Under the pieces are notes generated by a model. It was not told the DNA's origin and made no database searches. It saw only the letters and a list, made by a program, of their open reading frames with translations. 64,000 nt of DNA, from IMG/VR virus record IMGVR_UViG_3300037454_000475, positions 32,001 through 96,000 of that record; one strand, 5' to 3'. The DNA is from a virus. Taxonomy: Duplodnaviria; Caudoviricetes. Shown here one piece after another: positions 3,147 through 18,157 of the stretch (position 1 is the first letter of the stretch; every line of letters begins with the position of its first letter). The translations under genes were made by a program, and so were the position numbers.

Positions 3147-3151
3147 AATTT

Positions 3152-3227
3152 TGGAGCGGATGATGGGACTCGAACCCACGATATCCTGCTTGGAAGGCAG
3201 GCGCAATAGCCGCTATGCGACATCCGC
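3152..3227 (-). tRNA. tRNA-Gly(TCC), CCA encoded
   Basis: Cloverleaf; CCTGC-CT TCC AA-GCAGG. Confidence 0.95.
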
Positions 3228-3334
3228 ATGGTCGAGGGGCTGCTCGGCGTCACGCCGCCCCCTCGTGAGTGTTCCTTGGTGTCTTACGGATTTACAGCTG
3301 ATTACCGAGGTAGCAAAGCACACTGAACAAGCCG

Positions 3335-3417
3335 CGGAGAGTGGAGGTCTCGAACCCCATACGTTGCCGTACCAACCGCCTTCCAAACGGCGTTGCCGCC
3401 TTGGCAATTCACTCTCC
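3335..3417 (-). tRNA. tRNA-Ser(GGA), 8/4 fold
   Basis: Acceptor GGAGAGTG/CACTCTCC, 4-bp T stem, long variable arm, G73. Confidence 0.85.
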
Positions 3418-3423
3418 ATAATG

Positions 3424-3495
3424 AGCCGCAAGCTGGATTTGAACCAGCGACCTCGTCCTTACCAAGGACGCGTTCCACCCCTGAACTATTACGGC
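3424..3495 (-). tRNA. tRNA-Thr(GGT)
   Basis: CGTCC-TT GGT AA-GGACG. Confidence 0.95.
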
Positions 3496-3656
3496 ATGTT
3501 GGACATCATTAAGAACTCTTTAGAATCCCGCATCCTCCTTTGTTTAAGTTCCTCCAGCCACATTGCAAGCTGTGCATGATCCAATCCGCATTCTTTATTG
3601 GAACATGTCGAAGCAACCTCGTTGGCATGTTGGATGGCTTCATCAAGAGTCATCAT
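3489..3656 (-). CDS. Small phage protein (MMTLDEAIQHANEVA...HAQLAMWLEELK)
   Basis: Resembles a common small phage protein family; stop codon overlaps the 5' end of tRNA-Thr. Confidence 0.7.
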   Translation of the reverse strand: MMTLDEAIQHANEVASTCSNKECGLDHAQLAMWLEELKQRRMRDSKEFLMMSNMP

Positions 3657-3673
3657 ACTGATATATTTATTTG

Positions 3674-3797
3674 TCGAGGCGAGAGGATTCGAACCTCCAA
3701 AACCACTAACGTGGCCCCATGGCTTTCCACTCGAGCAACTATAACCACGGCTCCCGGACCAACCCCGGGCGTGTATAACCAATTTCACTACGCCTCA
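3674..3797 (-). ncRNA. tRNA-like RNA with extra arms
   Basis: Acceptor TGAGGCG/CGCCTCG, D and T arms, three hairpins between them. Confidence 0.7.
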
Positions 3798-3802
3798 ATA
3801 AG

Positions 3803-3878
3803 GGTGAGTAGTCAGGTTCGAACTGACGATCTCCGGATCCACAATCCGGCGCATTGGACCAACTATGCTATACACACC
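3803..3878 (-). tRNA. tRNA-His(GTG)
   Basis: CCGGA-TT GTG GA-TCCGG; G-1:C73. Confidence 0.95.
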
Positions 3879-3885
3879 ATCTGTA

Positions 3886-4000
3886 ATGTCTATCGGGCAT
3901 CCCTCTTACCTTCAGGCCACCCACACCCGTTTGGTTGGACGGGTTGCCCTTGATGGATGGCCGGGGATTCGAACCCCTATTATTAGATTTCGATAAACAT
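3886..4000 (-). ncRNA. Circularly permuted tRNA-like RNA (Y-RNA/YrlA-like arm order)
   Basis: 10-bp terminal stem enclosing T arm, 9-bp acceptor-like helix, then D-like segment. Confidence 0.55.
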
Positions 4001-4002
4001 TG

Positions 4003-4074
4003 TGTTCCCGGGTGGGATCGAACCACCGACCTTCTCCACGTCAAGGAGATGTTCTCCCGCTAAACTACAGGAAC
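4003..4074 (-). tRNA. tRNA-Val(GAC)
   Basis: TCTCC-TT GAC GT-GGAGA. Confidence 0.93.
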
Positions 4075-4234
4075 ATTAGCAGATTTGGTTTAACGTATGC
4101 CGGAGTTCTGCCGGACTCCCACGGATGGGTTCCTCTCTTTTGCGGCTTATCCATCAGCCGTCATACCGGGCATCCTGACTTTCGGTATGCTTTACCCACG
4201 TTTTTACCAGTTATGGACGTTATCAGGTTGGTAG

Positions 4235-4306
4235 TGCTCCCGAGTGGATTTGAACCACTGACCTTCTGCATGTGACGCAGATGTTCTCCCCCTAAACTAC
4301 AGGAGC
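4235..4306 (-). tRNA. tRNA-Val(CAC)
   Basis: TCTGC-GT CAC AT-GCAGA. Confidence 0.92.
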
Positions 4307-4417
4307 ATGTTGCCTCGACACCTTTAAAGAACCAATCAACTATCGCGCGAATGTGATGGACAAGAAACACCCTGCAGCTGGCCGAGGCCTACTCCTCTGC
4401 GTATCGTTGTTCTCTTT

Positions 4418-4495
4418 TGGTGCTCCCGGCAGGATTCGAACCTGCGACCCCCTGAATGTAAATCAGGTGCGCTAAACCGGCTACGCTACGAAAGC
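4418..4495 (-). tRNA. tRNA-Val(TAC), CCA encoded
   Basis: CCTGA-TT TAC AT-TCAGG. Confidence 0.95.
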
Positions 4496-4500
4496 ATATG

Positions 4501-4634
4501 AAGGAACAGACCCTTTTGATACAGGTGCTTATTTGGTCATCTGTAGGACATTTCACTATCGGGCGGCTTATTTAGCACGTGGCCACCCTAACAACCACCA
4601 GCTCCTACAGCTGGTATTCTCCCCTACGGGTTCC
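4501..4634 (-). ncRNA. Structured spacer RNA with pseudoknot potential
   Basis: Closing AGGAAC/GTTCCT; CTGTAGGA/TCCTACAG and GTGCT/AGCAC loop pairings. Confidence 0.5.
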
Positions 4635-4638
4635 TCTG

Positions 4639-4712
4639 TACCGGCGGGTGGACTCGAACCACCGTCTCCTCCTTATGAGAGAGGCGCAAGAAACCACCTC
4701 CGCTACGCCGAT
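4639..4712 (-). tRNA. tRNA-Met/Ile2(CAT)
   Basis: CCTCT-CT CAT AA-GGAGG. Confidence 0.9.
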
Positions 4713-4716
4713 ATTT

Positions 4717-4815
4717 TGTGACCGGCCGGGCTCGAACCGACATCCCCCCAGCTCCTACCTGCTACAGTCGCACAGCGGTCTTACCGGGTCATCTAACCGA
4801 TTGAATCTACGTCAC
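4717..4815 (-). ncRNA. tRNA-like RNA, anticodon loop replaced by ~30-nt hairpin
   Basis: T arm GTCGG-TTCGAGC-CCGGC; acceptor GTGAC/GTCAC; AC stem CCCGG/CTGGG. Confidence 0.7.
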
Positions 4816-4817
4816 TG

Positions 4818-5004
4818 CGGTTCGGCTGGGGATCGAACCCTGCAATCTAACCCTACCATTGAAGAGTGATACTCATGTCCTTTGGTTGCCTACAACCGTA
4901 ACGGCGACTCTATAATCCGGACACTTTCAAAAATTAGTACTCCGCCGGTCACCCCGCGGCAACACCTTCAGTCAGGTTCGCATTTCCGTTTATGCTATCA
5001 AACC
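4818..5004 (-). ncRNA. tRNA scaffold with ~120-nt structured insert in the anticodon loop
   Basis: Acceptor GGTTTG/CGAACC, D stem GCAT/ATGC, AC stem AACCT/GGGTT, T loop TTCGATC. Confidence 0.7.
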
Positions 5005-5014
5005 ATGTTTAGTT

Positions 5015-5788
5015 TTAATTCAAAGGAATATACTTAAAATTACGGACTTTTAACGGTGTATCAAGCCTATTTGGACGAATTTTTGGATCATCGACATTGA
5101 TATCGATAATGAAATCCATCAAATATCCCTTTTGTGGATCTTTCAGGTTATTTGTAAGCATGTTGGTGTATTTCCTTGATACCGTTTTTGTGACAATTCC
5201 GTTGGCTTTGAACGTTATCTTATCCGGACGCCACTCACACTCATACTTGATCCAATTCTCGGTGGGGTCAAGAGGCTGGTCACATTTCGTGACATTCTTG
5301 GATCCGAGATGTTCATGCACCATTTTACGGTTGTTATAGTGTACATTGTATGTAGTACGCCATGACTTTCCGATCCACGGAAAATGGTTGGTGAAGTTTT
5401 GTAGATAATTTCCACCAGTGGTAAGCACCTCCATCACGTCAATCTCCGGAGGCCAATTCCCGGCGCCACTCAACCAACAAGCACAACCAACATTAAGTCC
5501 TTTTGGAATCATCACTTCAATGGAGAATGTGCCGTAATCAAAATGTTGTCTTGTACGTATCAGTGCTCTTTCAATTGTTGGATGATATACCTTACCATTC
5601 CAGTGTTTTACCTCCCTTGGATTTTCACGGTAATACAGGTGAATCTCGCCGTTTGGCATCCTTTTCACTACATCCTCGGAATCGCTATACCATGCATGTG
5701 GATAACTCGAATGAATTATTCTTCCACCATCCATTTCGCATGACCAGTCATATCCGCACCAATTGAATAAGCTCTTTTCCATATACAC
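5015..5788 (-). CDS. Glycoside hydrolase family 16
   Basis: Catalytic motif WPPEIDVME; YGTFSIEV and EWRPDKITF segments. Confidence 0.88.
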   Translation of the reverse strand: MYMEKSLFNWCGYDWSCEMDGGRIIHSSYPHAWYSDSEDVVKRMPNGEIHLYYRENPREVKHWNGKVYHPTIERALIRTRQHFDYGTFSIEVMIPKGLNVGCACWLSGAGNWPPEIDVMEVLTTGGNYLQNFTNHFPWIGKSWRTTYNVHYNNRKMVHEHLGSKNVTKCDQPLDPTENWIKYECEWRPDKITFKANGIVTKTVSRKYTNMLTNNLKDPQKGYLMDFIIDINVDDPKIRPNRLDTPLKVRNFKYIPLN

Positions 5789-5832
5789 AATGTTCTTTTA
5801 TCAAGAATAAGAAAAATGGCTATGGTTTATCA

Positions 5833-5987
5833 AAAAATCAATCCGCATCCAACACAATGCGCGACCATTCGTGTTGAAATTTCCCTTATCATTCGTCAAA
5901 CCTCACGTGCGACCTGACTCATTTACAGTTCCTGAACGCGCCCTTTTTCGCGAGGGCTCAAGGCCGTTGTGGAATGATTTAGATTTT
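5833..5987 (-). ncRNA. Structured spacer RNA with kissing-loop potential
   Basis: Multibranch fold; loops CGCGA and TCGCG are complementary. Confidence 0.5.
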
Positions 5988-6057
5988 GTTCCATACAGGG
6001 GCTCGAACCCATGACCTCCGGCTTACGCCAGCGTGCTGCCAATTACACCACATGAAT
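5988..6057 (-). ncRNA. Anticodon-less tRNA mimic (GTAA tetraloop)
   Basis: Normal D and T arms; CTGGC-GTAA-GCCGG. Confidence 0.75.
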
Positions 6058-6151
6058 TTTACGCCTATTGTTTATTCAGTACTAACCCTGCACGACTTTC
6101 CTTTCAATATCGTCAACGCCATCCTACTACCACGTGCAGGTGGGTTCGGCG

Positions 6152-6233
6152 CGGAGAATTGAGGTATCGATCCCCATACAAATGTACAGCACGCTTTCGA
6201 GACGGCTCCCTTCACCATCAGGGTTAATTCTCC
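6152..6233 (-). tRNA. tRNA-Ser(CGA), 8/4 fold
   Basis: Acceptor GGAGAATT/AATTCTCC; T arm GGGG-ATCGATA-CCTC. Confidence 0.85.
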
Positions 6234-6355
6234 AAATGATATACGTAAAAAACGGAGGATTTTCGATTCCTCACCTCCTCTCCATTGGCTGGGACTCCCG
6301 ATATGCCCCGTTAAGGATTTACTAACTACCTCCGGATTAACTTATTGATCGTGTG

Positions 6356-6436
6356 TACCCCTGGTGGGACTCGAACCCACACTCCGAAGAATTAGATCCT
6401 AAATCTAACGCGTACTGCCAATTTCGCCACAGAGGT
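6356..6436 (-). tRNA. tRNA-Leu(TAG)
   Basis: TTAGA-TT TAG GA-TCTAA; variable arm. Confidence 0.95.
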
Positions 6437-6580
6437 ATTTGAAAGTCCGGTTACAACGCTTACAGCGCTCCTTTGGAATTATCCATTGGTCTGTCACCTA
6501 CAAGACGCTTGGCGACTTGGGGAGGTTCAGGGTTTCTGATTCGTTGCGCTACTACAAACCCTTTTTCGCCGGACATTTTA

Positions 6581-6654
6581 TGGAGCCCAGTGACGGAGTC
6601 GAACCATCCCCAACAGTTTTGCAGACTGCCACCCCCCCGCAGAGCTTACTGGGC
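6581..6654 (-). tRNA. tRNA-Cys(GCA), CCA encoded
   Basis: GCAGT-CT GCA AA-ACTGT; U73. Confidence 0.92.
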
Positions 6655-6659
6655 TTATT

Positions 6660-6860
6660 TGTGGGTTTACAGTACCCACGGACTGTATGTTGCCGGGAGT
6701 CGTATTGAACCGTATTCGGGATTCGTGCACCTACCCAAATTTGTAAAACGGACAGCCATTAAAAATCCTTGAATATGCATCTCCAAGGCAATCGCCGGTA
6801 CGCCGCCGAAACGGGGACACTCCCGTAAGAACCGGTCTATAGCTGTTTTTGCCGACATTT
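6660..6860 (-). ncRNA. Structured spacer RNA ending in an H-type pseudoknot
   Basis: TACAGT/ACTGTA with GTGGGT/ACCCAC; long-range CGGGAGT/ACTCCCG. Confidence 0.5.
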
Positions 6861-6870
6861 ATTAGGCTTG

Positions 6871-6947
6871 AAACTTTAATCGGATTCGAACCGATAATAA
6901 CCCATTGATGCATCCGCGGGGCTGGTTTGCCGTTAGCCTATAAAGTT
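6871..6947 (-). ncRNA. tRNA-like RNA with aberrant anticodon arm
   Basis: Perfect acceptor AACTTTA/TAAAGTT and T arm ATCGG-TTCGAAT-CCGAT. Confidence 0.7.
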
Positions 6948-7042
6948 TTCCTCGTGTCATTTTACGCGTTTTTCTTACCTGTGGAAGAGCCTATACCCAA
7001 ATTGTACGTTATGGGCAGGATATGACACTACTGTACAAGTTT

Positions 7043-7117
7043 GCTGTGTAGGGGGATTCGAACCACCAACCGGCGGCTTTCCGGCCACCAGCTCTACCGT
7101 TGAGCATTACTACACAC
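7043..7117 (-). ncRNA. Anticodon-less tRNA mimic, copy 1
   Basis: TGTGTAG/CTACACA; AC arm GGTGGC-CGGAAA-GCCGCC. Confidence 0.75.
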
Positions 7118-7207
7118 ACTCGTCTACCATACGAGCGGCACATTCAATTTCAACCGGGGCGTATGTCCCGGCCACCGGCTGGTAGTACCGGTAAGAAACC
7201 TTCAATG
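7118..7207 (-). ncRNA. Kissing-loop RNA motif, copy 1
   Basis: Loops CTACCA and TGGTAG; stems covary with copy 2. Confidence 0.7.
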
Positions 7208-7209
7208 CG

Positions 7210-7283
7210 TCATCCCGCGGGGACTCGAACCCACGATTTCAAGAGTGAGAATCTTGTTTCCTAACCTGTTAGAAGACAGGACG
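7210..7283 (-). tRNA. tRNA-Glu(CTC)
   Basis: CAAGA-TT CTC AC-TCTTG. Confidence 0.92.
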
Positions 7284-7294
7284 ATAAATAATTG

Positions 7295-7382
7295 TTGCGG
7301 TCGTGGGAGTCGAACCCACTATCACTCCTCTCATGAAGCGGAGCGTTATCGGCGCGTCACCTTTCCGTTTAACTCCACCGCA
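7295..7382 (-). ncRNA. Aberrant tRNA-like RNA with CAT loop and insert between D and AC arms
   Basis: TGCGGT/ACCGCA; T arm GTGGG-TTCGACT-CCCAC; loop TT CAT GA. Confidence 0.6.
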
Positions 7383-7409
7383 CGGGACGCCTCCCGTAAT
7401 TACGTAATC

Positions 7410-7483
7410 GCTGTGTAGGAGGGCTCGAACCTCAACCGGCCGCGTCCCGCAGCCAGCTCTACCTGTTGAGACTTACTACACAC
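7410..7483 (-). ncRNA. Anticodon-less tRNA mimic, copy 2
   Basis: TGTGTAG/CTACACA; AC arm is an 8-bp stem with a GGA triloop. Confidence 0.75.
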
Positions 7484-7571
7484 ACTCGTCTACCACCGAG
7501 TGGCATTTTCCGGTTTCACCCGGGAACTCCGTCCCGGGGCTGAATGGTAGTTCAGTGAGAAACCTTCAACG
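7484..7571 (-). ncRNA. Kissing-loop RNA motif, copy 2
   Basis: CTGAA-CTACCA-TTCAG and ACTCG-GTGGTAGA-CGAGT. Confidence 0.7.
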
Positions 7572-7573
7572 CG

Positions 7574-7645
7574 TCATCCCGTGGGGGCTCGAACCCCAAT
7601 TCCAAGATCGAAAATCTTGTTTCCTACCTGTTAGAAGACAGGACG
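7574..7645 (-). tRNA. tRNA-Glu(TTC)
   Basis: CAAGA-TT TTC GA-TCTTG. Confidence 0.92.
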
Positions 7646-7754
7646 ATGACTGCCGCGGTTTTGATAAGGTAGGCCCGCGGAGAACCTCATACTACCCCGA
7701 GGCTTCACCAAATCGTGTCAGTTACTTCACTGGAGCACGCCCCCTCGGTTGTTG

Positions 7755-7826
7755 TAGTCGGTACGGGATTCGAACCCATGTGACAAGATTGAAAATCTTG
7801 TATCCTAACCTTTAGATGAACCGACC
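7755..7826 (-). tRNA. tRNA-Glu(TTC)
   Basis: CAAGA-TT TTC AA-TCTTG. Confidence 0.94.
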
Positions 7827-7884
7827 ATATGATTGATCATAATCGACCGTAATAATTTTTCTTCATGGCTTTAATGTTTCTTTG

Positions 7885-7967
7885 TACCCCGAGTGGGATT
7901 CGAACCCACACGCGCAAAGGCAACAGGGCTTAAATCTGTCATGTACTACCAATTTCATCACCGGGGC
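7885..7967 (-). tRNA. tRNA-Leu(TAA)
   Basis: Loop TT TAA GC; long variable arm. Confidence 0.92.
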
Positions 7968-8012
7968 TTATACCTCTATATGTAAAGCGCTTTACATTCC
8001 ACCATCCCGCAC

Positions 8013-8331
8013 AACTCTACAAGGAGCGTCTTTAACCTCTCACTCTTTAATTATCGACTTGTGGTTGCCTGCGGTAACTTCTTTGAGTTTGTTACCCTCA
8101 ATGTGTCCTTTTGCGCTTATCAAATTGCATGACACGTATGATAAATTATTTGACCACCCCATCGAGTATCAAACTCAACTTTTTATAACAGATTGGCTAT
8201 CAAGCATCTCGAGCTACTTTTTAGTTCTCTGTAACCTCCTCTTTCCATGGAAGCCGGTTTGGGGGGATGTAAGGCAGGTCAGGGACGACAGGGACACTGA
8301 CGGTTTAAGAGCCTCACGCTCCCCTGAAGTT
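8013..8331 (-). ncRNA. Candidate ~320-nt structured RNA
   Basis: Long closing helix CAGGGGAGCGT/ACGCTCCTTG plus TCTTAAACC/GGTTAAAGA. Confidence 0.55.
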
Positions 8332-8339
8332 TGACCTTG

Positions 8340-8414
8340 TCGGATAGGCAGGATTCGAACCTGCGACCTCATGATCCCAAATCACGTGTGCTAACCTGAC
8401 TGCACCACTATCCG
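8340..8414 (-). tRNA. tRNA-Pro(TGG)
   Basis: CGTGA-TT TGG GA-TCATG. Confidence 0.95.
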
Positions 8415-8453
8415 GTACCACCGGCTTTTTCCAGGGAAACCGGTTCGAACCCA

Positions 8454-8955
8454 TACGCAACGTCAAGACGGTACCACCCGGGCGTTGTTAGGGAGGTGAT
8501 TCCTCCTCACCCGATCATTGTGAACCCGTAAGTGGGACTCCTTCTCCCATCAAACAGGTGGCTTGCCGAGTTACCAAGCAACGATCGAATCCTCGGAGCT
8601 CCTTAATACTGGCGAGCTGACCAAAAAGCCCCTTGCTACAGGCGGGCCGACCGACTCAACTTCATGTAACTTTTTCAGGGTGTGAGCGAACCCACAGGTT
8701 TATTTCCAGTCCTGTATCTGTCGATAAGGTTTGGCCGGCCGGATTCAGTTCCGGACTCGCGCTCCTTATCAGTTACGGAAGTTTTGCCCCACCGGCCGAA
8801 TATTCGCGGGAACTGGTGTGCTGCCCCGGCATCTCGGCGGGGATCGTTGTTGCGTTCCGGCGTGTGGTCGGCAGGGCTCGAAAAGGATTATTCGGCATCC
8901 CGTTGGCCAAACTGGAACCTATTTGGTCTGTGGGGGTACCATCACGATCTGCATA
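8454..8955 (-). ncRNA. Candidate large (~500 nt) structured RNA
   Basis: GC-rich, no credible ORF; terminal helices TATGCAG/TTGCGTA and GATGGTACC/GGTACCGTC. Confidence 0.6.
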
Positions 8956-8963
8956 ACCTTTTG

Positions 8964-9035
8964 TGGACACATGTGGGATTCGAACCCCTCCGTCTCCGTG
9001 CAAGGGAGAAGTGCTACCGTTACACTACATGGCCC
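8964..9035 (-). tRNA. tRNA-Ala(TGC), atypical acceptor
   Basis: TCTCC-CT TGC AC-GGAGA; G3:U70; bulged U, 8-bp acceptor. Confidence 0.85.
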
Positions 9036-9206
9036 ATTTGAAAAATTGGGTTCTTTTGTCGTCCTCCCGAGGTGTTCCGGAACCTTCATATACCCCTTGG
9101 GATACTGCCCGATTACAGAACTTCGATATACCCACGGCGCCATGGGAACCTGAAGGCTCGTTACGGATCAGGGTTGAACCCAAAACAATCCAAACCGCTT
9201 TTCACG

Positions 9207-9289
9207 TGACCTTGGCCGGACTCGAACCGGCACGGGTTTCCCCATAAGTCCCTCAAACTTACGCGTGCTGCCAATTTCGCCACAAGGCC
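9207..9289 (-). tRNA. tRNA-Leu(GAG)
   Basis: TAAGT-TT GAG GG-ACTTA. Confidence 0.94.
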
Positions 9290-9394
9290 ATACGTGGGAA
9301 CGTGTCCCACTTTCTATCTCTATTTATCTCGTGCTCGGAGTACGGAGCGAGCCCCTGTCGTTAATCACCATCCTTACCGTAAATGGCGATTTAG

Positions 9395-9482
9395 TAGCGG
9401 GAGGAGGATTCGAACCTCCGACCTCCTTTTGGGAAGTACTGGCTTATGAGACCAGCGAGATAGTCCACTTCTCTACCCCGCG
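9395..9482 (-). tRNA. Initiator-like tRNA-Met(CAT) with long variable arm
   Basis: CGCGGGG 5' strand with 1:72 mismatch; variable hairpin ACTTCC-CAAAA-GGAGGT. Confidence 0.85.
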
Positions 9483-9496
9483 ATGTGTTTTTAATG

Positions 9497-9653
9497 TGGC
9501 CCCTCAAGGATTCGAACCTCGTACGCTTTCCAAAGCAGGGGCTCTTTGGAGTTTAATATCGAAAAACTCCTCGGGATCTAAAACGCATGACTTTCACATG
9601 ATAGCCCAAGAGCTCTGTTGGGATATATAATAATCACCAGTCGTTAAGGGGCA
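9497..9653 (-). ncRNA. tRNA-like acceptor/T domain with ~110-nt branched arm and no D stem
   Basis: GCCCCT/AGGGGC; CGAGG-TTCGAAT-CCTTG. Confidence 0.7.
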
Positions 9654-9679
9654 ATTACTCCCTGTAGTTAGGTGAACTG

Positions 9680-9753
9680 TGGTCCCGGGAGGATTCGAAC
9701 CTCCGACCTGCTGATTATGAGTCAGCTGCTCTAACCTGCTGCGCTACAAGACC
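9680..9753 (-). tRNA. tRNA-Ile2/Met(CAT)
   Basis: GCTGA-CT CAT AA-TCAGC; Ile-like acceptor. Confidence 0.92.
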
Positions 9754-9913
9754 GAAGGATAATGTCCTTGTTTTCCGGCGAGAGGAGGCGCTTTGCAAAG
9801 ATTTTTGGACGTAATAACATCCAGTCCGGAGCTCCTCAAGGAACGGTATTATACGGTGCACCGAACGCAGATTTACATGGAATTAACCAATACGGCGTAC
9901 AAGCGACATTATT

Positions 9914-10047
9914 GCGGGGAGAACAGGATTCGAACCCATCTTATTTACGGCCTATGAACTTACTTTACCGGTATTAGCTCTTCCCGGTGTTTCTTTTCAA
10001 ATCCAACCTAACGGATAAAAGCCGGCCTCACGTTAGGAGCATCCCCA
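9914..10047 (-). ncRNA. tRNA-like acceptor/T domain with unrelated interior
   Basis: TGGGGA/TCCCCG; ATGGG-TTCGAAT-CCTGT. Confidence 0.55.
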
Positions 10048-10064
10048 ATATTTGTTTCCGGCAT

Positions 10065-10142
10065 TGGTTGCGGGAACCGGATTCGAACCGGTGTGGAACG
10101 GCTTATGAGACCGTGCTGGAACCATCTCCAGTCTATCCCGCA
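10065..10142 (-). tRNA. tRNA-Met(CAT), CCA encoded
   Basis: ACGGT-CT CAT AA-GCCGT; TGCGGGA/TCCCGCA. Confidence 0.9.
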
Positions 10143-10150
10143 ATAAATAG

Positions 10151-10267
10151 GTGCTTGGGTTGGACTCGCACCAACAACCTTCCGGTCTCATCCGGAGGCT
10201 CTACATAACCGCGGTGGTATTGATCAGATACCTGCTGACATCATGCCCCTATTTGAGCTACCAAGCT
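10151..10267 (-). ncRNA. tRNA-like RNA with ~50-nt D-loop insert and 6-nt anticodon loop
   Basis: D stem GCTC/GAGC; TCCGG-ATGAGA-CCGGA; T loop TGCGAGT. Confidence 0.7.
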
Positions 10268-10790
10268 ACGCATGTGCACTGCGCTTTTGATTGTTTGGTG
10301 TATTAACGCCACACCGGCGTATTGGACGCCGATCAGATGACCGCATCGGCGCGCGGACTCTTGCTGTTAACGCAATAGTTGCAACGACCTTTCATGATTA
10401 GACTTTGCCTTCGTCGTCCCGGCGCCGTCCCTACTGGATCTGTTGGAGTCTGTCCCACTTCCGTTCCGTTCCTGTAAGAGTATCGAACATCCGTGGTAAG
10501 CCGTCTTTCGGGAACCAAATATGTTTATCGCTTCCGGCATTGCATCGGCCCTCTCTTTGTGAATATATGGTCGTCTTTGGGCTTCTTGGCGGATTGGCTG
10601 GATGTTATCGCCTTTTCGGCCACGTGATCTTTCACAGCATCAGCGCCTTTCAATCCTGATGGTTTCCTGTTACATCGGGTGCCTATCATTTCAGCTACCT
10701 TTCATTTCGGCAGGAGTTAATTGAGGGGCGGACACGGGTCGGCCCAGGGCGGCAAAAGCCGCGGAATTACTCCACCCAGTTTAATCACAA
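10268..10790 (-). ncRNA. Candidate large (~520 nt) structured RNA
   Basis: Non-coding interval between tRNA elements, many short stems with purine-rich/GAAA loops. Confidence 0.5.
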
Positions 10791-10867
10791 TGGTGGACAC
10801 AGAAGGGCTTCGAACCCTCGACCTCCTGACTGCCAGTCAGGCGTTCTACCAACTGAACTACTGGCCC
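10791..10867 (-). tRNA. tRNA-Ala(GGC), CCA encoded
   Basis: CCTGA-CT GGC AG-TCAGG; G3:U70; bulged U in acceptor. Confidence 0.92.
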
Positions 10868-10952
10868 ATAACATTCTCGGATGTTTTCTCCTTTATCTTA
10901 TCACAAGACCAATTTCAGGTCAACTACCACTTGCAAATCTAACTCTTTGTTT

Positions 10953-11031
10953 GCGCGCGGGGAGGTTGTCGATCCTCCGTCTTCCGTGAATGCTTTGATA
11001 AACACACTTCGGTTCTTTGTTGAGCTCGCGG
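10953..11031 (-). ncRNA. Degenerate tRNA-like element
   Basis: T-like arm GGAGG-ATCGACAA-CCTCC; D-like GCTC...GAAC. Confidence 0.35.
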
Positions 11032-11187
11032 ATGGCATTTTATGGCTCCAATTCACCGGCGGGGTCATGACTCCCCAATGGCTGTCCGTTATATTTCTAT
11101 GGTTTAATCTTTCAACCTCCGAGGTCGTTCGGCGTTCCTCTGTAGGTTTTTTAATGCGCGCTAACCTACTTAATTATTGTGTGTTTG

Positions 11188-11260
11188 TCGGGTTAGGTGG
11201 GCTCGAACCACCGACCTATCGCGTATCAGGCGAGTGCTCTACCAACTGAGCTACAACCCG
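11188..11260 (-). tRNA. tRNA-Ile(GAT)
   Basis: Loop CT GAT AC; canonical D and T arms. Confidence 0.94.
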
Positions 11261-11534
11261 GTGAGGCGGATGGAATCACTTCTTTCCGCCAATCTCATGG
11301 ATACGACCAATCACTTTCCGTTTATTCGGTACTGTCAGGTGTTGGGTCGATTACTTCCACCACCCTACTGGCAGCGATCTCCTGATTTCAGCATATAGCA
11401 AACCGGTGAGTTTTGGGCCGCTTTCGGCCACGGGTGTGATTTAGTAACGTGAAATCGTATCCGTATATCTTTACCGCCCATTATACAAAGTTCCGTTCAG
11501 GTGGTTAACCATCCCTTCCAGCGATATGTGGCGG

Positions 11535-11573
11535 ATAAGAATCAATCAAATGTCTCCCAATATGTCAAAGAAC
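11535..11573 (-). promoter_or_regulatory. rrn-like leader with boxA (copy 2)
   Basis: GTTCTTTGACATATTGGGAGACATTTGATTGATTCTTAT, identical to 18909-18947. Confidence 0.75.
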
Positions 11574-11610
11574 GTTGTTCTTTGTTGTTGGAACCTTGTT
11601 CCTTCAACAC

Positions 11611-11642
11611 CTATATATAATAAACACCGCTGATTTATTAAC
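11611..11642 (-). promoter_or_regulatory. Putative phage promoter GTTAA-N17-TTATATATAG
   Basis: Exact motif upstream of the boxA leader. Confidence 0.8.
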
Positions 11643-11668
11643 AAGGAAATTGAAAAAAAAATCGCTTG

Positions 11669-11739
11669 AGGCTCTTACTGGACTCGAACCAGTGTCTGTT
11701 GACTACGAAACAACTATTCTACCCCTAAACTAAAAAGCC
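11669..11739 (-). tRNA. tRNA-Thr(CGT)
   Basis: Loop TT CGT AG. Confidence 0.9.
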
Positions 11740-11824
11740 ATGGACGGGGTTTTTGTTATTTTCTCATCGAGTGTTAGCCCCCGAAACTCATAACTCGATA
11801 AAGTTGGGCGCTACCCAACACGCG

Positions 11825-11896
11825 GCGTATGTGCGGTGCTCGAACCCGCCAACAGGAGATTTGGTCCCCTCGCTCGCCATCTTGCGTTACATACTC
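11825..11896 (-). ncRNA. tRNA-like RNA / pseudo-tRNA with 5-nt loop
   Basis: GTATGT/ACATAC; AGGGGA-CCAAA-TCTCCT; T loop TTCGAGC. Confidence 0.6.
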
Positions 11897-11982
11897 ATAT
11901 GCGGTTAATTACTCCGCACGGGTACCCTCTCTTTCTCTTTCAATACCGCGTCCGATATTTACTCATACTCAAGTCAGGTCTG

Positions 11983-12063
11983 TACCCCGAGAGGGACTCG
12001 AACCCTCACCCTTTCGGACTGGGTTTTGAAGCCAGCGCGTCCTGCCAATTTCGCCACCGGGGT
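11983..12063 (-). tRNA. tRNA-Leu(CAA)
   Basis: Loop TT CAA AA; variable arm. Confidence 0.93.
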
Positions 12064-12241
12064 GTAAATAGGATTTCCTCTTATACTACCCATGAGGGAA
12101 ACCCAAAAAGCTAACATGCACGTACACATACGATTACGTGACCCATCGGTGTCCCATATCCATCACCGAAGCGATGCACAGAGGGTGTGAGCAGCTGTAC
12201 GATCCCAAGTACTGACCGGTACTTCGTTGGGCTTTCATGTC

Positions 12242-13201
12242 TTATATCTTCCCGTTAAACGGGTTCGGTATTCCGTAAATTTTGTAGATCAAATGATCAT
12301 TTATATCAAATGGGTTACCATACAACTTCGAGTACCTAAATATGCAATCGTTCTTGTATTTTTCAAACATTTCATCGGTATAGGTAAGTTCCTTGTACTT
12401 CTCCCTAAAATCCATGGCAGCTTTCCAATCAAGATCCCGGATATCCTCAACCGGATCATCCATAACCGTTAACAAACCTTCAAAATAATTGAATGTGGAA
12501 GCTGATGTCAGTATATGTTTACCCATACAGATGTTCTCAAATATGCGAACCACATTTTGTGAAATTGCGGTATCCGATTCCGGGTTATGAGGTACGTCCA
12601 AAATAAATTTGGTGTTGTACACAACATCCTTGATTTCGTTGGGTCTCAATCCTTCGATACAATAAAATGACTTATCAATAAGTTTGATTTCATCAAAATA
12701 TTTTTTTCTCGAACTTGATGCTTGACCAAAAAATCCAAGATTATAATCATAATCCCCGGAATTTCCGATGTGCTCTGATTGATTGTAAAATCTTAATGGC
12801 ATCCACTTGAGCTTGTTCCATTGATTTGGGAGGAGTTCCTTGTAATACTCAAAGGATTCCAGCCACAAAAGCCATATTTCATCAACATCCTGCAACCATT
12901 CATCTTCCATGTACGGCATAACCCAATACGGTGAATGTTCGGTTTCAAGTAATATCAACTTATTGTATCTCGCCTTTATTTCCTTGAGATCGTACAAATT
13001 GATTGGTTGGGTTGGATATGGCTTTATGTCAAACGGAGCTTTTTTCGAATCAAACCGATCAATACATGGCCAATTGAATATGAGTGTCCCTTGTGGTTCG
13101 GTTTCATCATAGTGCTCAAGGATCATATCCCGAACGCTTGTGATATCCGAATTGAAGAATACACTAATATTTTTGCCACGTTGCAAATAGTTGATCTTCA
13201 T
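12242..13201 (-). CDS. Putative glycosyltransferase (YkvP/CgeB-like, GT-B)
   Basis: Start MKINYLQRG; C-terminal FFGQ...SR, KFILDV, NVVRIFENICMG pattern. Confidence 0.6.
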   Translation of the reverse strand: MKINYLQRGKNISVFFNSDITSVRDMILEHYDETEPQGTLIFNWPCIDRFDSKKAPFDIKPYPTQPINLYDLKEIKARYNKLILLETEHSPYWVMPYMEDEWLQDVDEIWLLWLESFEYYKELLPNQWNKLKWMPLRFYNQSEHIGNSGDYDYNLGFFGQASSSRKKYFDEIKLIDKSFYCIEGLRPNEIKDVVYNTKFILDVPHNPESDTAISQNVVRIFENICMGKHILTSASTFNYFEGLLTVMDDPVEDIRDLDWKAAMDFREKYKELTYTDEMFEKYKNDCIFRYSKLYGNPFDINDHLIYKIYGIPNPFNGKI

Positions 13202-13217
13202 ATGTTTGCTTTTTATT

Positions 13218-13288
13218 GCACAACCTGTGAGGAATTGAACCTCAACCCCCGGCCGCGCCGGTGCTCTATACCGTGAGCTACAGGTGTA
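13218..13288 (-). ncRNA. Anticodon-less tRNA mimic (3-nt loop)
   Basis: CCGGC-GCG-GCCGG; canonical D and T arms. Confidence 0.75.
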
Positions 13289-13442
13289 CTTCCGAATCGC
13301 ACGGAATGCGGTTCCTTCAGGAGCCGGTAACTCTGTTTCCACCAGTTGGGTCAGGAACATACCCCCGCCTATTGCTACCAAGACGGCTAATCCCTTCTCT
13401 TTTATATCGCCCGGTAGGGAACGTGCTATCACATGTGAAAAG

Positions 13443-13513
13443 TTGTCCCGTCGGGATTCGAACCCAAAATTACAGATCCAAAATCTGTCGTGTTACCGTT
13501 ACACTACGAGACA
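13443..13513 (-). tRNA. tRNA-Gln(TTG)
   Basis: ACAGA-TT TTG GA-TCTGT; U1-A72. Confidence 0.95.
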
Positions 13514-13626
13514 ATAGTAACCCAACCTACCTCAACTTCTATTTTGCTTCATTGGCATCCTGAACCTCCGGAGAGTGGAACTTAAACCCTTTCACTGGTC
13601 TTTCAACCTTCTATCGGTTGGGTTTG

Positions 13627-13698
13627 TTGTTCTAACTGGATTCGAACCAATTCCTCCTGATCCAGGGTCAGGTGTACTACCGGATATACTATGGAACA
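13627..13698 (-). tRNA. tRNA-Gln(CTG)
   Basis: CCTGA-CC CTG GA-TCAGG (C33). Confidence 0.9.
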
Positions 13699-13740
13699 AT
13701 CAACTTTGGTATAATATATGAAACCTTTACAAGAATTTCG

Positions 13741-14139
13741 TTATTCAACAATATTTATTCGGCAATTGCAGTTCTCATAAGATATCTTACCATCTCCATT
13801 TTCAAGTATGTAATAATAATCATCCTGTGTTATTTCCAACCCTTTGAATCTGCATTGGTTGCCTCTGTGATCAATGACTTGTTTTCCAAGGTTATATTTC
13901 ACATATTCACATATTGGCTTCATATTTCCGCATCCGGATCTTTCGATTTGTGAATCAACAAAATCTTCCGGTTTGGTAAGTTGAAGGCTGTAACCAATAG
14001 TGCTGAAATACGATGGAGTAAATAGTCCCAATCTTGTAAATATGCGGAACCATATACTTTCATACCAATCAAGCATCTGCTTTATGGATTTGAATCGTAT
14101 TGTGTAATGAAATGGTAACCTTAAACGCATATACCGCAT
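13741..14139 (-). CDS. Hypothetical protein
   Basis: 132-aa AT-rich ORF co-oriented with the island. Confidence 0.65.
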   Translation of the reverse strand: MRYMRLRLPFHYTIRFKSIKQMLDWYESIWFRIFTRLGLFTPSYFSTIGYSLQLTKPEDFVDSQIERSGCGNMKPICEYVKYNLGKQVIDHRGNQCRFKGLEITQDDYYYILENGDGKISYENCNCRINIVE

Positions 14140-14156
14140 ATACCATATTTTATTTG

Positions 14157-14231
14157 CCCGAACGAACGGTTACGATCCGTCTATTTTACCGGAGTGACAG
14201 TCCGGTTCCTCACCAAGAGGCCTACGCTCGG
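14157..14231 (-). tRNA. tRNA-Asp(GTC), atypical T loop
   Basis: CCGGA-CT GTC AC-TCCGG; T loop ATCGTAA; G73. Confidence 0.8.
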
Positions 14232-14290
14232 ATAGAACCACGCTTTATTTTTGTCATTGTATGATGAAGCATGGGTGAACATCACATGCG

Positions 14291-14446
14291 TGGGTATGGG
14301 TGGAATTGAACCTTGAACAACGCCGTTACTCCTGTCTTACTTGCCGCGGATTTTCGTACAGTTTCTCAACGCCGTAAACCTAACCCTCTAAATAAGAGGA
14401 ACCTCCCTCACTGGAGGCCCCGCTACCGTTACGGGGTTACATACCC
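14291..14446 (-). ncRNA. tRNA-like RNA with 6-bp D stem, 6-nt AC loop and ~70-nt insert before the T loop
   Basis: GGGTATG/CATACCC; CCCCGT/GCGGGG; CCTCC-AGTGAG-GGAGG. Confidence 0.7.
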
Positions 14447-14452
14447 ATATGT

Positions 14453-14526
14453 TGGCAGGGGTGGATGGAATCGAACCACCAACTACGGTTTTGGAGACCG
14501 GCATTATACCGTTTAACTACACCCCT
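14453..14526 (-). tRNA. tRNA-Trp(CCA), CCA encoded
   Basis: Loop CT CCA AA; G73. Confidence 0.95.
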
Positions 14527-14620
14527 ATACGTGTACCATTCACCATGTTCGAACGGTACCAATGTCACCACAACTCTATTGTTTCACCATTATGTCCGGA
14601 GCGGTGGGAGAAGACACGCG

Positions 14621-14693
14621 TGGGAAGGAGTGGAGTCGAACCACTATCTTCGGATTTTCAGTCCGCCGCATAGACCTGCTTTGCTACCTTCCC
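14621..14693 (-). tRNA. tRNA-Phe(GAA)
   Basis: Loop CT GAA AA. Confidence 0.94.
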
Positions 14694-14700
14694 ATATATG

Positions 14701-14783
14701 CGGAGAGCAGAGGAATCGAACCTCATACGTTGCCGTACACACAATTTAGCAGAATGGTTCCTTGCCTGAAGGATTTACTCTCC
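14701..14783 (-). tRNA. tRNA-Ser(GCT), 8/4 fold
   Basis: GGAGAGTA/TGCTCTCC; GAGG-TTCGATT-CCTC; 5-bp D stem. Confidence 0.85.
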
Positions 14784-14792
14784 ATTAAGAAA

Positions 14793-15071
14793 AAACCGAG
14801 TAAGAATTGATGATCACGAAGACCTCGAATTACATGGCGAGCTACGGACTGGAGAAACGGCGGCTGGTTACGCCGATTGCATTACCACGTAGGGTTTTAC
14901 CTCCTGTTGCGTTGCGCGTATGGCTCCTCACGGACAAGACCCTTTCGGGGTACCAACACTCTTCACGGAGCTGACGGTCTGCCTTCGGCTACCGGCGCCT
15001 ACATGCACGCTTATTCCGGAATTACACGTACACTTACCTCCGACACTACTGGGTGGCCCTATACTCGGTTT
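14793..15071 (-). ncRNA. Candidate ~280-nt structured RNA
   Basis: 10-bp closing stem AAACCGAGTA/TACTCGGTTT; several GNRA-like hairpins. Confidence 0.6.
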
Positions 15072-15089
15072 AACCGAATGAACGGTTTG

Positions 15090-15166
15090 TGGAGCAGATG
15101 ACGGGGTTCGAACCCGCAAACCTCCTGCTTGGCAAGCAGGCTATCTACCAATTGATATACATCTGC
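15090..15166 (-). tRNA. tRNA-Gly(GCC), CCA encoded
   Basis: CCTGC-TT GCC AA-GCAGG. Confidence 0.95.
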
Positions 15167-15351
15167 ATGGATGCAAGTCGCTAACGTTCTCTCGAAACCT
15201 CACTTGCGAACCCGGCCGTGGTTCATGGTTTTGGCTGATCTACCTCCTCACAGCTGGCGCCCGGATTATATGGCAAATCCGGGTTAGCCCCGTTTTACTC
15301 CGCCGGGAAGCACTTATTGTCTCCGGCCCCCGGTCGCTTAACGGTACAGCG

Positions 15352-15433
15352 TTGGAAGGGAGGGATTCGAACCCCCGAACCCAATGGGAGTGGATTTACA
15401 GTCCACCGCGTTTAACCACTTCGCTACCTTCCA
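15352..15433 (-). tRNA. tRNA-Tyr(GTA)
   Basis: GTGGA-CT GTA AA-TCCAC; variable arm. Confidence 0.95.
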
Positions 15434-15576
15434 ATGTTTGGAACTAATGAAGCTGTGTCAACTTTCATTCTTCATCCGAGTTAAAGAATTATCTGTCATT
15501 TAACTAATGTGACCATTGTATTCAAGGCGCCCGGCCACTATCCTCGGTTTTTGTACTTCATGTCATTGTCCCATTG

Positions 15577-15672
15577 TGCCGCCGGTAGGGCTCGAACCTA
15601 CTTACTGCTAAAGTCCACTACGAAAATTTGTTAAAGCAGATCGGTTTTACAGACCGGTTCCGTTACGTCGGC
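15577..15672 (-). ncRNA. D-armless tRNA-Tyr(GTA)-like RNA with ~40-nt variable arm
   Basis: Only TAACGGA between acceptor and AC arm; loop CT GTA AA; T arm GTAGG/CCTAC. Confidence 0.75.
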
Positions 15673-15680
15673 ATTATAAT

Positions 15681-15812
15681 AACTCCCATATTACTTGGCT
15701 GTATACCCTATAGGAACGTGCGTTGTTTGGAGTCGAACCAAATTCAGTAACAGCATCACTTGACAAATGCTTCGCGCACTACCTTTCCAGTTTATACAGC
15801 ATGAAAGGAATT
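15681..15812 (-). ncRNA. Long hairpin RNA with embedded T arm
   Basis: GCTGTATA/TATACAGC, GTGCG/CGCAC, TTTGG-TTCGACT-CCAAA. Confidence 0.55.
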
Positions 15813-15813
15813 G

Positions 15814-15885
15814 AGCCGATGGAGGGATTCGAACCCCCGACCAACTGATTACAAAACAGTAGCGCTACCACTGCGCCACATCGGC
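15814..15885 (-). tRNA. tRNA-Thr(TGT)
   Basis: Loop TT TGT AA. Confidence 0.94.
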
Positions 15886-15892
15886 TTATCTG

Positions 15893-15966
15893 TCTCCCTG
15901 GAGGGACTCGAACCCCCAACCTTATGATCCGTAGTCATGCGCTCTATCCAATTGGGCTACAGGGAG
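15893..15966 (-). tRNA. tRNA-Arg(ACG)
   Basis: Loop CT ACG GA; A20. Confidence 0.94.
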
Positions 15967-16054
15967 GAGTTTGAAGAGTTACTACGCTACCCTTCGAAGC
16001 TGTTCCAACGGTGCCTTATCAGGCAGCGATGGCCATTTTTGATCTATTGCCGTT

Positions 16055-16140
16055 TGGCGGAGAATTGAGGTATCGATCCCCATACAGAATGTACAGCACG
16101 TTTTCAAGACGGCTCCCCTCACCATCAGGGTTAATTCTCC
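16055..16140 (-). tRNA. tRNA-Ser(TGA), 8/4 fold, CCA encoded
   Basis: Paralog of 6152-6233; loop CT TGA AA. Confidence 0.87.
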
Positions 16141-16142
16141 AA

Positions 16143-16540
16143 TGGAGCCGCTTTCGAGTGATCCCGGACACTACCCCGGCGGGCGCGGCATACCCATATG
16201 TGTTTGTGCGATTGTATCCTATAAAAGGTGGGTGAGAACTACGCCCTCACCCGTGGCTGTGCTTCGGTGCCTAACTTTAGGCAGCGATAGCCATTTCAGT
16301 ACGTGCGCCAGTTATTGCGCGGACACCATCTCTTTTGTTCCTTCGGCCGCTGTCAAAACCAAACACCCCCATATGAGAAGGTTTATACGATACCTACAAA
16401 CGTTTGGGGACACCGTATGGCATCGATCCACCACCGATTTTTACGAAATCGGAAACGTCTTTAATTGGCGAAAGAGTGGAGGTGACGGGAGTCGAACCCG
16501 TGTCCAAACGGATTATCTAACAAAATACAAACGATTGTGC
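16143..16540 (-). ncRNA. ssrA: Circularly permuted (two-piece) tmRNA; tag (A)GARTEMAIAA
   Basis: Acceptor piece ...GGACACGGGTTCGACTCCCGTCACCTCCA (ends 16477) precedes GGGGGTGTTTGGTTTTGAC (starts 16370); G3:U70; ATAACT then tag ORF 16309-16277. Confidence 0.9.
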
Positions 16541-16544
16541 CATG

Positions 16545-16618
16545 CGGTGTTGAAGGGGCTCGAACCCTCGACCTCCGCCGTGACAGGGCGGCATTCTAAC
16601 CAGCTGAACTACAACACC
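16545..16618 (-). tRNA. tRNA-Asp(GTC)
   Basis: CCGCC-CT GTC AC-GGCGG. Confidence 0.96.
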
Positions 16619-16626
16619 ATATAGAA

Positions 16627-16719
16627 ATCCAACTCAAAAATCCGTAGACGTGGGGGTGAAAAAGGAAAGGAGGTGACCCACAAGCCGTTCGTTCGGCATC
16701 GGATTAAAACCTGTTGGAT
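16627..16719 (-). ncRNA. Structured small RNA with anti-Shine-Dalgarno loop
   Basis: ATCCAAC/GTTGGAT, AATCCG/CGGATT, GTGGG/CCCAC enclosing TCACCTCCTTTCC. Confidence 0.6.
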
Positions 16720-16741
16720 ACTGCGGACGCAGTGGTTTTTG

Positions 16742-16814
16742 CGGGATCAGAAGGAATCGAACCTTCAACCTACGGATTAACAGTCCGGTGCTCTACCGAT
16801 TGAGCTATGAACCC
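16742..16814 (-). tRNA. tRNA-Asn(GTT)
   Basis: Loop CT GTT AA; G73. Confidence 0.94.
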
Positions 16815-16874
16815 ATATTTTGCAGATTTTATTGTCAGCTGGTAACGTCTGCAAACCTTACTGACAACCTTTCG

Positions 16875-16948: not shown

Positions 16949-16959
16949 ATTATTAAAAG

Positions 16960-17032: not shown

Positions 17033-17112
17033 ATGATGATCGGATATTGTAGCATTAGGTACAAGTGCACCCTGAGGCATGTTTCACCTCGGATCTCGGC
17101 ATATCCGATTTG

Positions 17113-18020: not shown

Positions 18021-18157
18021 CACCAAGACGAGGATTCGAACCTCGGCCTCAATGTCCTCTCGGGCATTGTATTCTGTCCTCTTTCCATCGTGGCAACTCC
18101 GGCCGGCTGTACAACCAGCTTATTGGTCTTACCACGACTTCATCTAACTACCTTGAT
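18021..18157 (-). ncRNA. tRNA scaffold with ~65-nt D-loop insert and GAGA-capped anticodon arm
   Basis: ATCAAGG/TCTTGGT; CAATGCCC-GAGA-GGACATTG; CGAGG-TTCGAAT-CCTCG. Confidence 0.7.

Follow-up and report, generated by a model that had tools for sequence, protein, structure and literature searches.

A tRNA-rich RNA gene array with five closed units

The DNA analyzed here (the window) is a stretch of 64,000 nucleotides (nt), positions 32,001 to 96,000 of the IMG/VR virus record IMGVR_UViG_3300037454_000475, and all coordinates below are window positions. It forms part of a 105-kb record with a completeness of 58% by CheckV estimate and a G+C content of 43%. Near-identical DNA was found in gut metagenomes and metatranscriptomes of cattle, goats, and sheep from 14 studies, and the source is therefore a large rumen phage. 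The minus strand carries an RNA gene array of about 16 kb (3150-18800) with 38 transfer RNA (tRNA) genes called by ARAGORN, a two-piece transfer-messenger RNA (tmRNA), and three protein genes, encoding a GH16 hydrolase and two open reading frames (ORFs) of 319 and 132 amino acids (aa), ORF319 and ORF132. Real tRNA genes number about 45 in all, and beside the ARAGORN calls and the tmRNA some 20 further units bear a T arm. Among the tRNA genes lie five tRNA-shaped units, named A to E here, in which the anticodon arm ends in a closed helix (Table 1). The sequence evidence suggests that these are real, selected, non-decoding tRNA-shaped RNA genes within a polycistronic array. Below, relative contigs carry L numbers and sequencing runs carry X numbers.

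TABLE 1 Features of the RNA gene array and its surroundings, in window coordinates
Feature	Position	Strand	Description
Unit A	5988..6057	minus	Anticodon-like stem CUGGC/GCCGG, GUAA cap (6023-6026)
Unit B	7043..7117	minus	7-8-bp anticodon-like helix, 6-nt loop CGGAAA (7078-7083)
Unit C	7410..7483	minus	5-bp stem, self-complementary loop CGGGACG closing to a GGA triloop (7445-7447)
Unit D	13218..13288	minus	Near-canonical cloverleaf, arm CCGGC-GCG-GCCGG, triloop 13254-13256
Unit E	18021..18157	minus	137-nt tRNA-framed RNA, GAGA-capped hairpin (18058-18061) in anticodon position
B and C modules	7033-7298 and 7400-7660	minus	Also in contig L105, 420-1100
Structured spacer, B module	7117..7209	minus	Runs directly into the B acceptor stem
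Structured spacer, C module	7483..7572	minus	Architecture as in the B spacer
ORF319 (319 aa)	12242..13201	minus	Directly downstream of D; start ATG 13201
ORF132 (132 aa)	13741-14139		Canonical tRNA-Asp 16 nt before ATG
GH16 glycoside hydrolase gene	5015..5788	minus	Downstream of A; cargo gene
Irregular T-arm units, part 1	3674-3797, 4717-4815, 4818-4900, 6871-6947, 7295-7382, 9497-9568		
Irregular T-arm units, part 2	9915-9985, 11825-11895, 15577-15672, 15718-15790, 17842-18009		
Ser-like tRNA genes	3335-3417, 6150-6232, 14701-14783, 16059-16139	minus	Long variable arm
Two-piece (circularly permuted) tmRNA	16186-16566	minus	Rfam tmRNA_permuted, 63.1 bits
Terminator-like hairpin	19361-19390	minus	13 pairs and T run, after OmpA-like gene
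Promoter-like site	19317-19345	minus	Follows terminator-like hairpin

Structure of the closed units

The original prediction had described five tRNA-shaped units with a closed anticodon arm, and all five were recovered on the minus strand with the loops that it had placed (GTAA, GGA, GCG, GAGA, and a 6-nt loop that reads CGGAAA in the DNA). The part of the molecule that forms the tRNA elbow is intact in each of them: the D loop has GG, the T loop has TTC(R)A, and the acceptor/T stack measures 11 to 12 base pairs (bp). Unit D, the most regular, has U8, A9, a D stem GCUC/GAGC, and a T arm UGAGG-UUCAAUU-CCUCA. Unit A combines a 7-bp acceptor stem containing three G-U pairs with a 3-bp D stem whose loop contains GG and a T arm in which one base is bulged. 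Unit C is a paralogue of unit B, and in both the linker between the acceptor and D stems measures 4 nt instead of 2. Unit E has a 7-bp acceptor stem and a canonical T arm, with a hairpin of about 50 nt replacing the D arm.

Laid out in the canonical frame, only D is truly shortened: its anticodon arm consists of 5 bp and 3 nt, or 13 nt against the normal 17. Unit A has a 16-nt arm, one base short, with a 6-nt loop region that closes to GUAA; unit B has 5 bp and an 8-nt region whose ends pair and which lacks U33; and unit C has 5 bp and a 7-nt loop, CGGGACG, with G33 and C37. Sealing is mostly by base substitutions that zip the loop shut, not by deletions. Normal decoding by A to E is not possible, as had been predicted, for want of a 7-nt loop that has both U33 and a purine at position 37; the exception is the homologue of B in contig L105 (see below).

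Units A to D all have the cloverleaf and the elbow bases (G18 G19; T54 T55 C56), and none of the four has the canonical 5-bp stem with a 7-nt loop bearing U33 and a purine at 37. ARAGORN made no call on A to E. Against the Rfam tRNA model (RF00005, gathering score 29 bits), A scored 23.3 bits and B 18.9 bits, and C and D had no match at E<=10. A G3:U70 pair is absent from the acceptor stems of all five, as read from the stems. Folding-energy z-scores are weak for A (-0.13) and for B, C, and D (about -1.7 to -1.9), which is common for tRNAs, and no argument is built on them; the value for E is -2.58. No unit has been copied recently from a canonical tRNA of the array, and no parent tRNA is recognizable. 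Because A, B/C, and D have a GCCGG strand in common, they were considered as one family; a B/C covariance model gives D 15 bits and misses A, and they were kept as separate families. A custom cloverleaf scanner missed A to D, overextended canonical anticodon stems via 32-38/33-37 pairs, and was not used.

The B/C family and its structured spacer

Units B and C lie in a duplicated module of 250 nt composed of a tRNA-Glu gene, a structured spacer of 90 nt, and the sealed unit. B follows tRNA-Glu(CUC), which was detected by Rfam only, and C follows tRNA-Glu(UUC). Each sealed unit is the 3' domain of a structured RNA of about 165 nt. In the B module the spacer forms a helix, GGUUUC/GAAAUU, around two hairpins, followed by a third hairpin, and a GAAAYY strand recurs across copies. 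The spacer loops ACUACCA and UGGUAGA are mutually complementary and invariant in four copies, and the stem of the first spacer hairpin is wholly exchanged between the modules, CCGGU/GCCGG in B versus CUGAA/UUCAG in C. Speculatively, the UGGU of the spacer could also pair with an ACCA 3' end.

A covariance model of the family has five distinct members (window B and C, B of L104, and B and C of L105), which score 79 to 101 bits (window B 101, window C 86); everything outside the family scores at most 32 bits. In the alignment of these five sequences, 98.1% of stem cells are paired and three pairs are changed on both sides, values for pairing and double changes that were attained in only 9 of 500 shuffles. 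Hardly any variation falls in the acceptor, D, and T arms, and the anticodon-like helix varies at six of its seven pairs and is still 94% paired. The adjacent real tRNA-Glu genes behave in the opposite way, with anticodon arms identical between the same genomes. Where window B has a mismatch or bulge in the T stem, L104 has a full A-U pair. In L105, the loop of the B homologue measures 7 nt (GUGAAGC) and has U33 and G37; ARAGORN reads this homologue as tRNA-Phe(GAA), and the Rfam tRNA model gives no match to it. GAA is present in all three loops of the B lineage, and this lineage may have descended from a decoder.

Conservation of D, A, and E in relatives

Diverged copies came from Logan, ENA, and JGI assemblies from many samples. 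A megablast search of 5900-13400 against GenBank phages gave no match, nothing was found in IMG/VR with three DNA patterns, ORF319, or the OmpA-like protein as queries, and nothing in a JGI scan with an ORF319 alignment. Units D, B, and C were present in every relative that covers their position, with the exception of L019, where a tRNA-Leu stands in the place of D. Three further distinct forms of D were recovered, in L001, L003 to L005, and L006 to L011 (protein identity of the neighboring ORF 98%, 76%, and 75%), all with a 3-nt loop of GCG or CGU. The anticodon-like stem CCGGC/GCCGG of unit D is invariant across them, and the loop letters change from GCG to CGU, all three altered at constant length. 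Elsewhere in D, one T-stem pair changes from G-C to G-U, and acceptor position 3:70 passes from A-U through U-U to U-A across the series. RNAalifold recovered the cloverleaf with its triloop.

Unit A is represented by a single diverged copy, in L104, which is 95.6% identical and keeps the GUAA cap. The copy of E in L003 is 81% identical; in its long hairpin 12 nt are deleted and compensatory changes are seen, and its 3' half (GAGA hairpin, T arm, and acceptor strand) is unchanged. The original prediction held that normal 7-nt loops in close homologues would point to recent deletions or assembly errors. Mostly they were not found, the closed arm being kept to about 15 to 20% divergence; the L105 homologue of B is the one case that does have a 7-nt loop.

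That a closed arm might be an error of assembly is contradicted by contigs of run X3, which span 3893-7171 and 11544-14608 with zero differences to the window and thus reproduce A, B, and D exactly. Moreover, JGI contig L106, 98.2% identical to the window, has B and C in identical form, and variant copies of the units occur in L001, L003 to L011, L104, and L105. With identical and variant copies in many independent assemblies and several host species, a sequencing or assembly artifact has practically no probability left.

Positions relative to protein genes

Unit D ends 16 to 19 nt upstream of the ORF319 start codon. A start at GTG 13432, in a frame that would run over D, was considered and rejected because the homologues begin at the MK... 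methionine. In L019, which lacks D, an ORF319 orthologue of 63% identity is preceded by a canonical tRNA-Leu(CAA) whose end lies 28 nt from the ATG. The tRNA-Asp, D, and the tRNA-Leu thus all stand just before ORF starts, and the slot is therefore filled by a tRNA shape, decoding or not. ORF319 may be glycosyltransferase-like, as suggested by look-alikes found with a language model only. Between the window and L001 it shares 77% DNA identity, versus 91 to 100% for the surrounding RNA genes and 98% for ORF132, and it looks to have been exchanged by recombination, as a mosaic. ORF132 had no Pfam or PHROG family and no lead in the protein atlas, only close homologues, and its AlphaFold model (predicted local distance difference test score of 43.6) is unusable.

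Unit A lies 200 nt upstream of the GH16 gene, with no other tRNA-shaped unit in between. Relatives of this GH16 at 80% identity lie outside tRNA arrays and gave no homologues of A.

Processing and stability handles as the favored reading

RNase P, 3'-end nucleases, and the CCA-adding enzyme recognize the acceptor/T-arm stack together with the elbow formed by the D and T loops. Tentatively, and as something that may well prove otherwise, we favor the reading that A to E are cis-acting processing and stability handles in the array transcript. The units would retain the part of a tRNA that these enzymes read, and conversion of the anticodon arm into a closed helix would keep the released RNA out of decoding. 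Host tRNA-processing enzymes might thereby cut the long transcript at handles where no real tRNA stands: D would act immediately upstream of one inserted protein gene, and A as the last tRNA shape before another; B and C would form the 3' end of a structured RNA of some 165 nt, and E would frame a larger structured insert. The constraint on the upper half, the closed lower helix, and the positions together make cis handles the best-supported reading. In a consensus scan, neither the sealed units nor the junction between D and ORF319 had a terminator-like site, which fits co-transcription. The units exist, are conserved, evolve in a structure-preserving way, and occupy these positions; that they are cleaved by RNase P and a 3'-end nuclease, and that selection acts on this cleavage, is what we infer.

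Several observations weigh against this reading. Sequence identity of D among relatives (0.85 to 0.97) is no better than that of the surrounding spacers (0.87 to 0.95), and RNAalifold found no double-sided covariation in D because its stems are invariant. Unit A is absent from sheep strain X16, in which 5889 is joined to 6101 and 5890-6100 are gone, including 143 flanking bases; since GH16 is retained there, at least A is dispensable. In the window, A lies 200 nt from the GH16 start and is not adjacent to it. The argument from position was drawn from three ORFs and after the fact, and any ORF inserted in so dense an array gets a tRNA-shaped neighbor. Finally, the RNA-run data are at contig level, from which transcript starts, ends, and levels cannot be read; contig ends of run X13 that fall near 18057-18072, within E, have no clear meaning.

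Alternative readings

A unit that is excised and given a CCA end might instead act in trans, as a tRNA mimic that binds a factor, from the host or the phage, reading the upper half of tRNA. Possible factors include synthetases, modification enzymes, and defense enzymes that attack the elbow or the acceptor end, for which the unit would serve as decoy, sponge, or cofactor. This widens the original prediction, which had proposed decoys for tRNA-targeting nucleases or toxins, or ligands of synthetases, EF-Tu, or RelA. The near-invariant acceptor, D, and T arms of B and C are what a protein-contacted surface would look like, and the sealed units stand among many other tRNA-framed RNAs of one array. 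Recognition by anticodon nucleases or RelA depends on an anticodon loop or a codon-anticodon pair, and T-box leaders likewise depend on such a loop. The first two, which the original prediction had named, are therefore unlikely targets. A G3:U70 pair allows anticodon-independent charging by alanyl-tRNA synthetase, and the units offer neither this pair nor a long variable arm for such charging. Pfam searches of the 105-kb record, itself 58% complete, gave no match to PTH2 (PF01981, at E<=1), a CCA-adding enzyme, RtcB, or an RNA ligase, and neither ORF132 nor the other ORFs nearby had a PTH2-like Pfam or PHROG match. The depth of the X3 contigs over A, B, and D equals that of neighboring protein genes (31 to 34), with no enrichment, and a stoichiometric decoy would need abundance; this equal depth shows neither expression nor silence. 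Taken together, we regard action in trans as rather unlikely, though worth keeping in view. With similar reserve, the sealed look-alikes could be conceived as an undescribed, widespread class of phage noncoding RNA that uses the tRNA frame as a natural scaffold and acts in trans, and, as part of that same idea, as RNAs that soak up or redirect host binders of the acceptor end or elbow, such as defense enzymes by which tRNA ends are modified or cut, or serve as cofactors of phage proteins.

Decay is the other reading with some weight: the units would be neutral relics of tRNAs that lost the anticodon loop, their persistence explained by close relationship among the strains and by module turnover. 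The absence of A from one natural strain speaks for it, as do the absence of the neighboring 168-nt unit from L001, the conservation of D and A at no more than spacer level, the want of double-sided covariation in D, and the L105 homologue of B, whose 7-nt U33 loop still reads GAA as if derived from a decoding tRNA. Relics, however, should have a parent tRNA and accumulate changes blind to pairing. No parent is recognizable; changes in the anticodon-like helix of B and C keep pairing in about six of eight events by our own count, versus about one in four by chance; the defective T-stem position of window B is fully paired in L104; the triloop of unit D exchanges all its letters at constant length; and the attached spacer shows a fully compensated stem replacement and invariant loops. 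B and C thus do not look like relics, the data for A and D are few, and presence or absence between strains is seen for A only. Neutral relics may fit A and perhaps D but apparently not B and C, and as an account of the whole set we consider decay doubtful. That the units are unusual decoders, for instance with 8-nt loops for four-base codons or with loops that open on the ribosome, is very improbable. The 8-nt loop region of B and the GAA loop of its L105 homologue are in keeping with it. Against it stand the loops: A, B (in the window and in L104), C, and D have no U33, unit C carries a C at position 37, the loop of D is three bases long, and Watson-Crick pairs join the loop ends. In addition, B and C have an acceptor-to-D linker of twice the usual length, and the Rfam tRNA model gives scores below threshold or none.

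Other features of the array

About 15 more units of the array combine an irregular middle with a matching acceptor stem and a good T arm (Table 1). They measure 71 to 168 nt, one has a variable region of 55 nt and one a loop ACCAAAU with C33, and several are 99 to 100% identical in L001 and L003. Four Ser-like genes with a long variable arm, without an ARAGORN call, have anticodon loops that read GGA, CGA, GCU, and UGA by hand. Three of the four match the Rfam tRNA-Sec model below threshold (24.9 to 33.7 bits), and 6150-6232 has no Rfam match. At least the gene at 3335-3417 is compatible with an 8-bp acceptor stem and a 4-bp T stem (8/4 tRNA-Ser). The four genes are probably of this kind, and A to D are not. 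Together with them the array covers all 20 amino acids. The tag peptide of the tmRNA is GARTEMAIAA in the window and GARREMAIAA in L001. The promoter-like site that follows the OmpA-like gene and its terminator-like hairpin may be the start of the array transcript.

From strain to strain the array changes by whole modules. In L003, an Endonuclease_7 ORF (2257-2697) is inserted between tRNA-Asn and tRNA-Asp; in L104, an inserted ORF of 160 aa (806-1288) separates tRNA-Cys from tRNA-Leu; the 168-nt unit is missing from L001 in the stretch that corresponds to window 17660-18018; and the array of L006 is far more compact. Contigs of runs X3 and X13 over 8450-10224, 10888-11573, and 18376-18942 have depths of 413 to 975, versus about 31 to 34 in the rest of the array (10 to 30 times higher). 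These stretches contain long tRNA-free spacers, such as 8415-8962 and 10143-10794. The high depth hints at abundant structured RNAs; as a contig-level figure it is a hint and not a measurement.

Significance and comparison with known systems

The tRNA genes of large phages are usually counted and viewed only as decoders or as substitutes for tRNAs that host defense has cut. In this array, about a third of the tRNA-shaped genes cannot decode, yet their tRNA fold is kept under selection. If the units are processing handles, they show how a phage organizes a 16-kb polycistronic RNA in which protein genes and structured RNAs are mixed with tRNAs and a tmRNA; action in trans would make them a new kind of phage RNA effector. 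Whichever their function, tRNA finders miss the sealed units, and phage tRNA arrays are thus under-annotated.

A full-text literature search found no paper on tRNA look-alikes with a sealed anticodon arm in phage arrays. The units resemble canonical tRNAs (RF00005) in their cloverleaf, the GG of the D arm, the TTCRA of the T arm, their length of 67 to 75 nt, and their location in a same-strand array, and differ from them in having no 7-nt loop with U33 and purine 37 and, for B and C, in the 4-nt linker and the lower helix of 7 to 8 bp. In the mascRNA of MALAT1, the t-elements of plant mitochondria, and mitochondrial tRNA punctuation, cuts by RNase P and RNase Z define the ends of neighboring RNAs. 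These systems share with the sealed units a tRNA shape without a usable anticodon at the borders of other RNAs, and as handles the units would work in a similar way; they are eukaryotic or organellar systems and have no sequence relationship to the units. The mascRNA model (RF01684) gave weak matches of 19 to 26 bits on ordinary tRNAs only and none on A to E. Closer in setting, the tRNA clusters of T4 (species 1 and 2) and T5 encode stable RNAs other than tRNAs, whose maturation depends on the tRNA-processing enzymes of the host. RNAs of this kind are resembled by unit E and its 168-nt neighbor, whereas A to D are minimal cloverleaves and not larger RNAs with a tRNA-like end.

YrlA (RF02553), a Y-RNA-like tRNA mimic of bacteria and phages, likewise has a non-decoding tRNA-like domain that keeps the tertiary contacts. 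Its acceptor end is not free but extends into a Ro-binding stem, whereas A to D have free 5' and 3' ends, and its model gave a single match of 26.4 bits (gathering score 69) that spans two ordinary tRNAs at 15827-15945. The tRNA-like domain of tmRNA has G3:U70 and no anticodon arm, and A to E lack that pair. Judged by these comparisons, the sealed units fall outside tRNA as defined by Rfam and ARAGORN, mascRNA, YrlA, and the tmRNA tRNA-like domain, and belong with tRNA mimics as a known kind. Irregular tRNA polycistrons and 8/4 tRNA-Ser have been described in phages and rumen bacteria, and several irregular tRNAs, some from phages or the bovine rumen, may go unused in translation (Mukai et al. 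2017; PMC5389517). Those irregular tRNAs keep the anticodon loop and differ in acceptor/T geometry, whereas it is the anticodon arm that sets the sealed units apart; the description accounts for the Ser-like genes of this array and not for A to D. A parallel to the changed arm is man-made: in the engineered tRNA scaffold for recombinant RNA in E. coli (Ponchon and Dardel), the anticodon arm is replaced by another helix and the tRNA frame gives correct processing and nuclease resistance (PMC3753655). The natural units carry a short cap (A to D) or a larger insert (E and others), and, if they are processing handles, they would be the natural counterpart of this scaffold.

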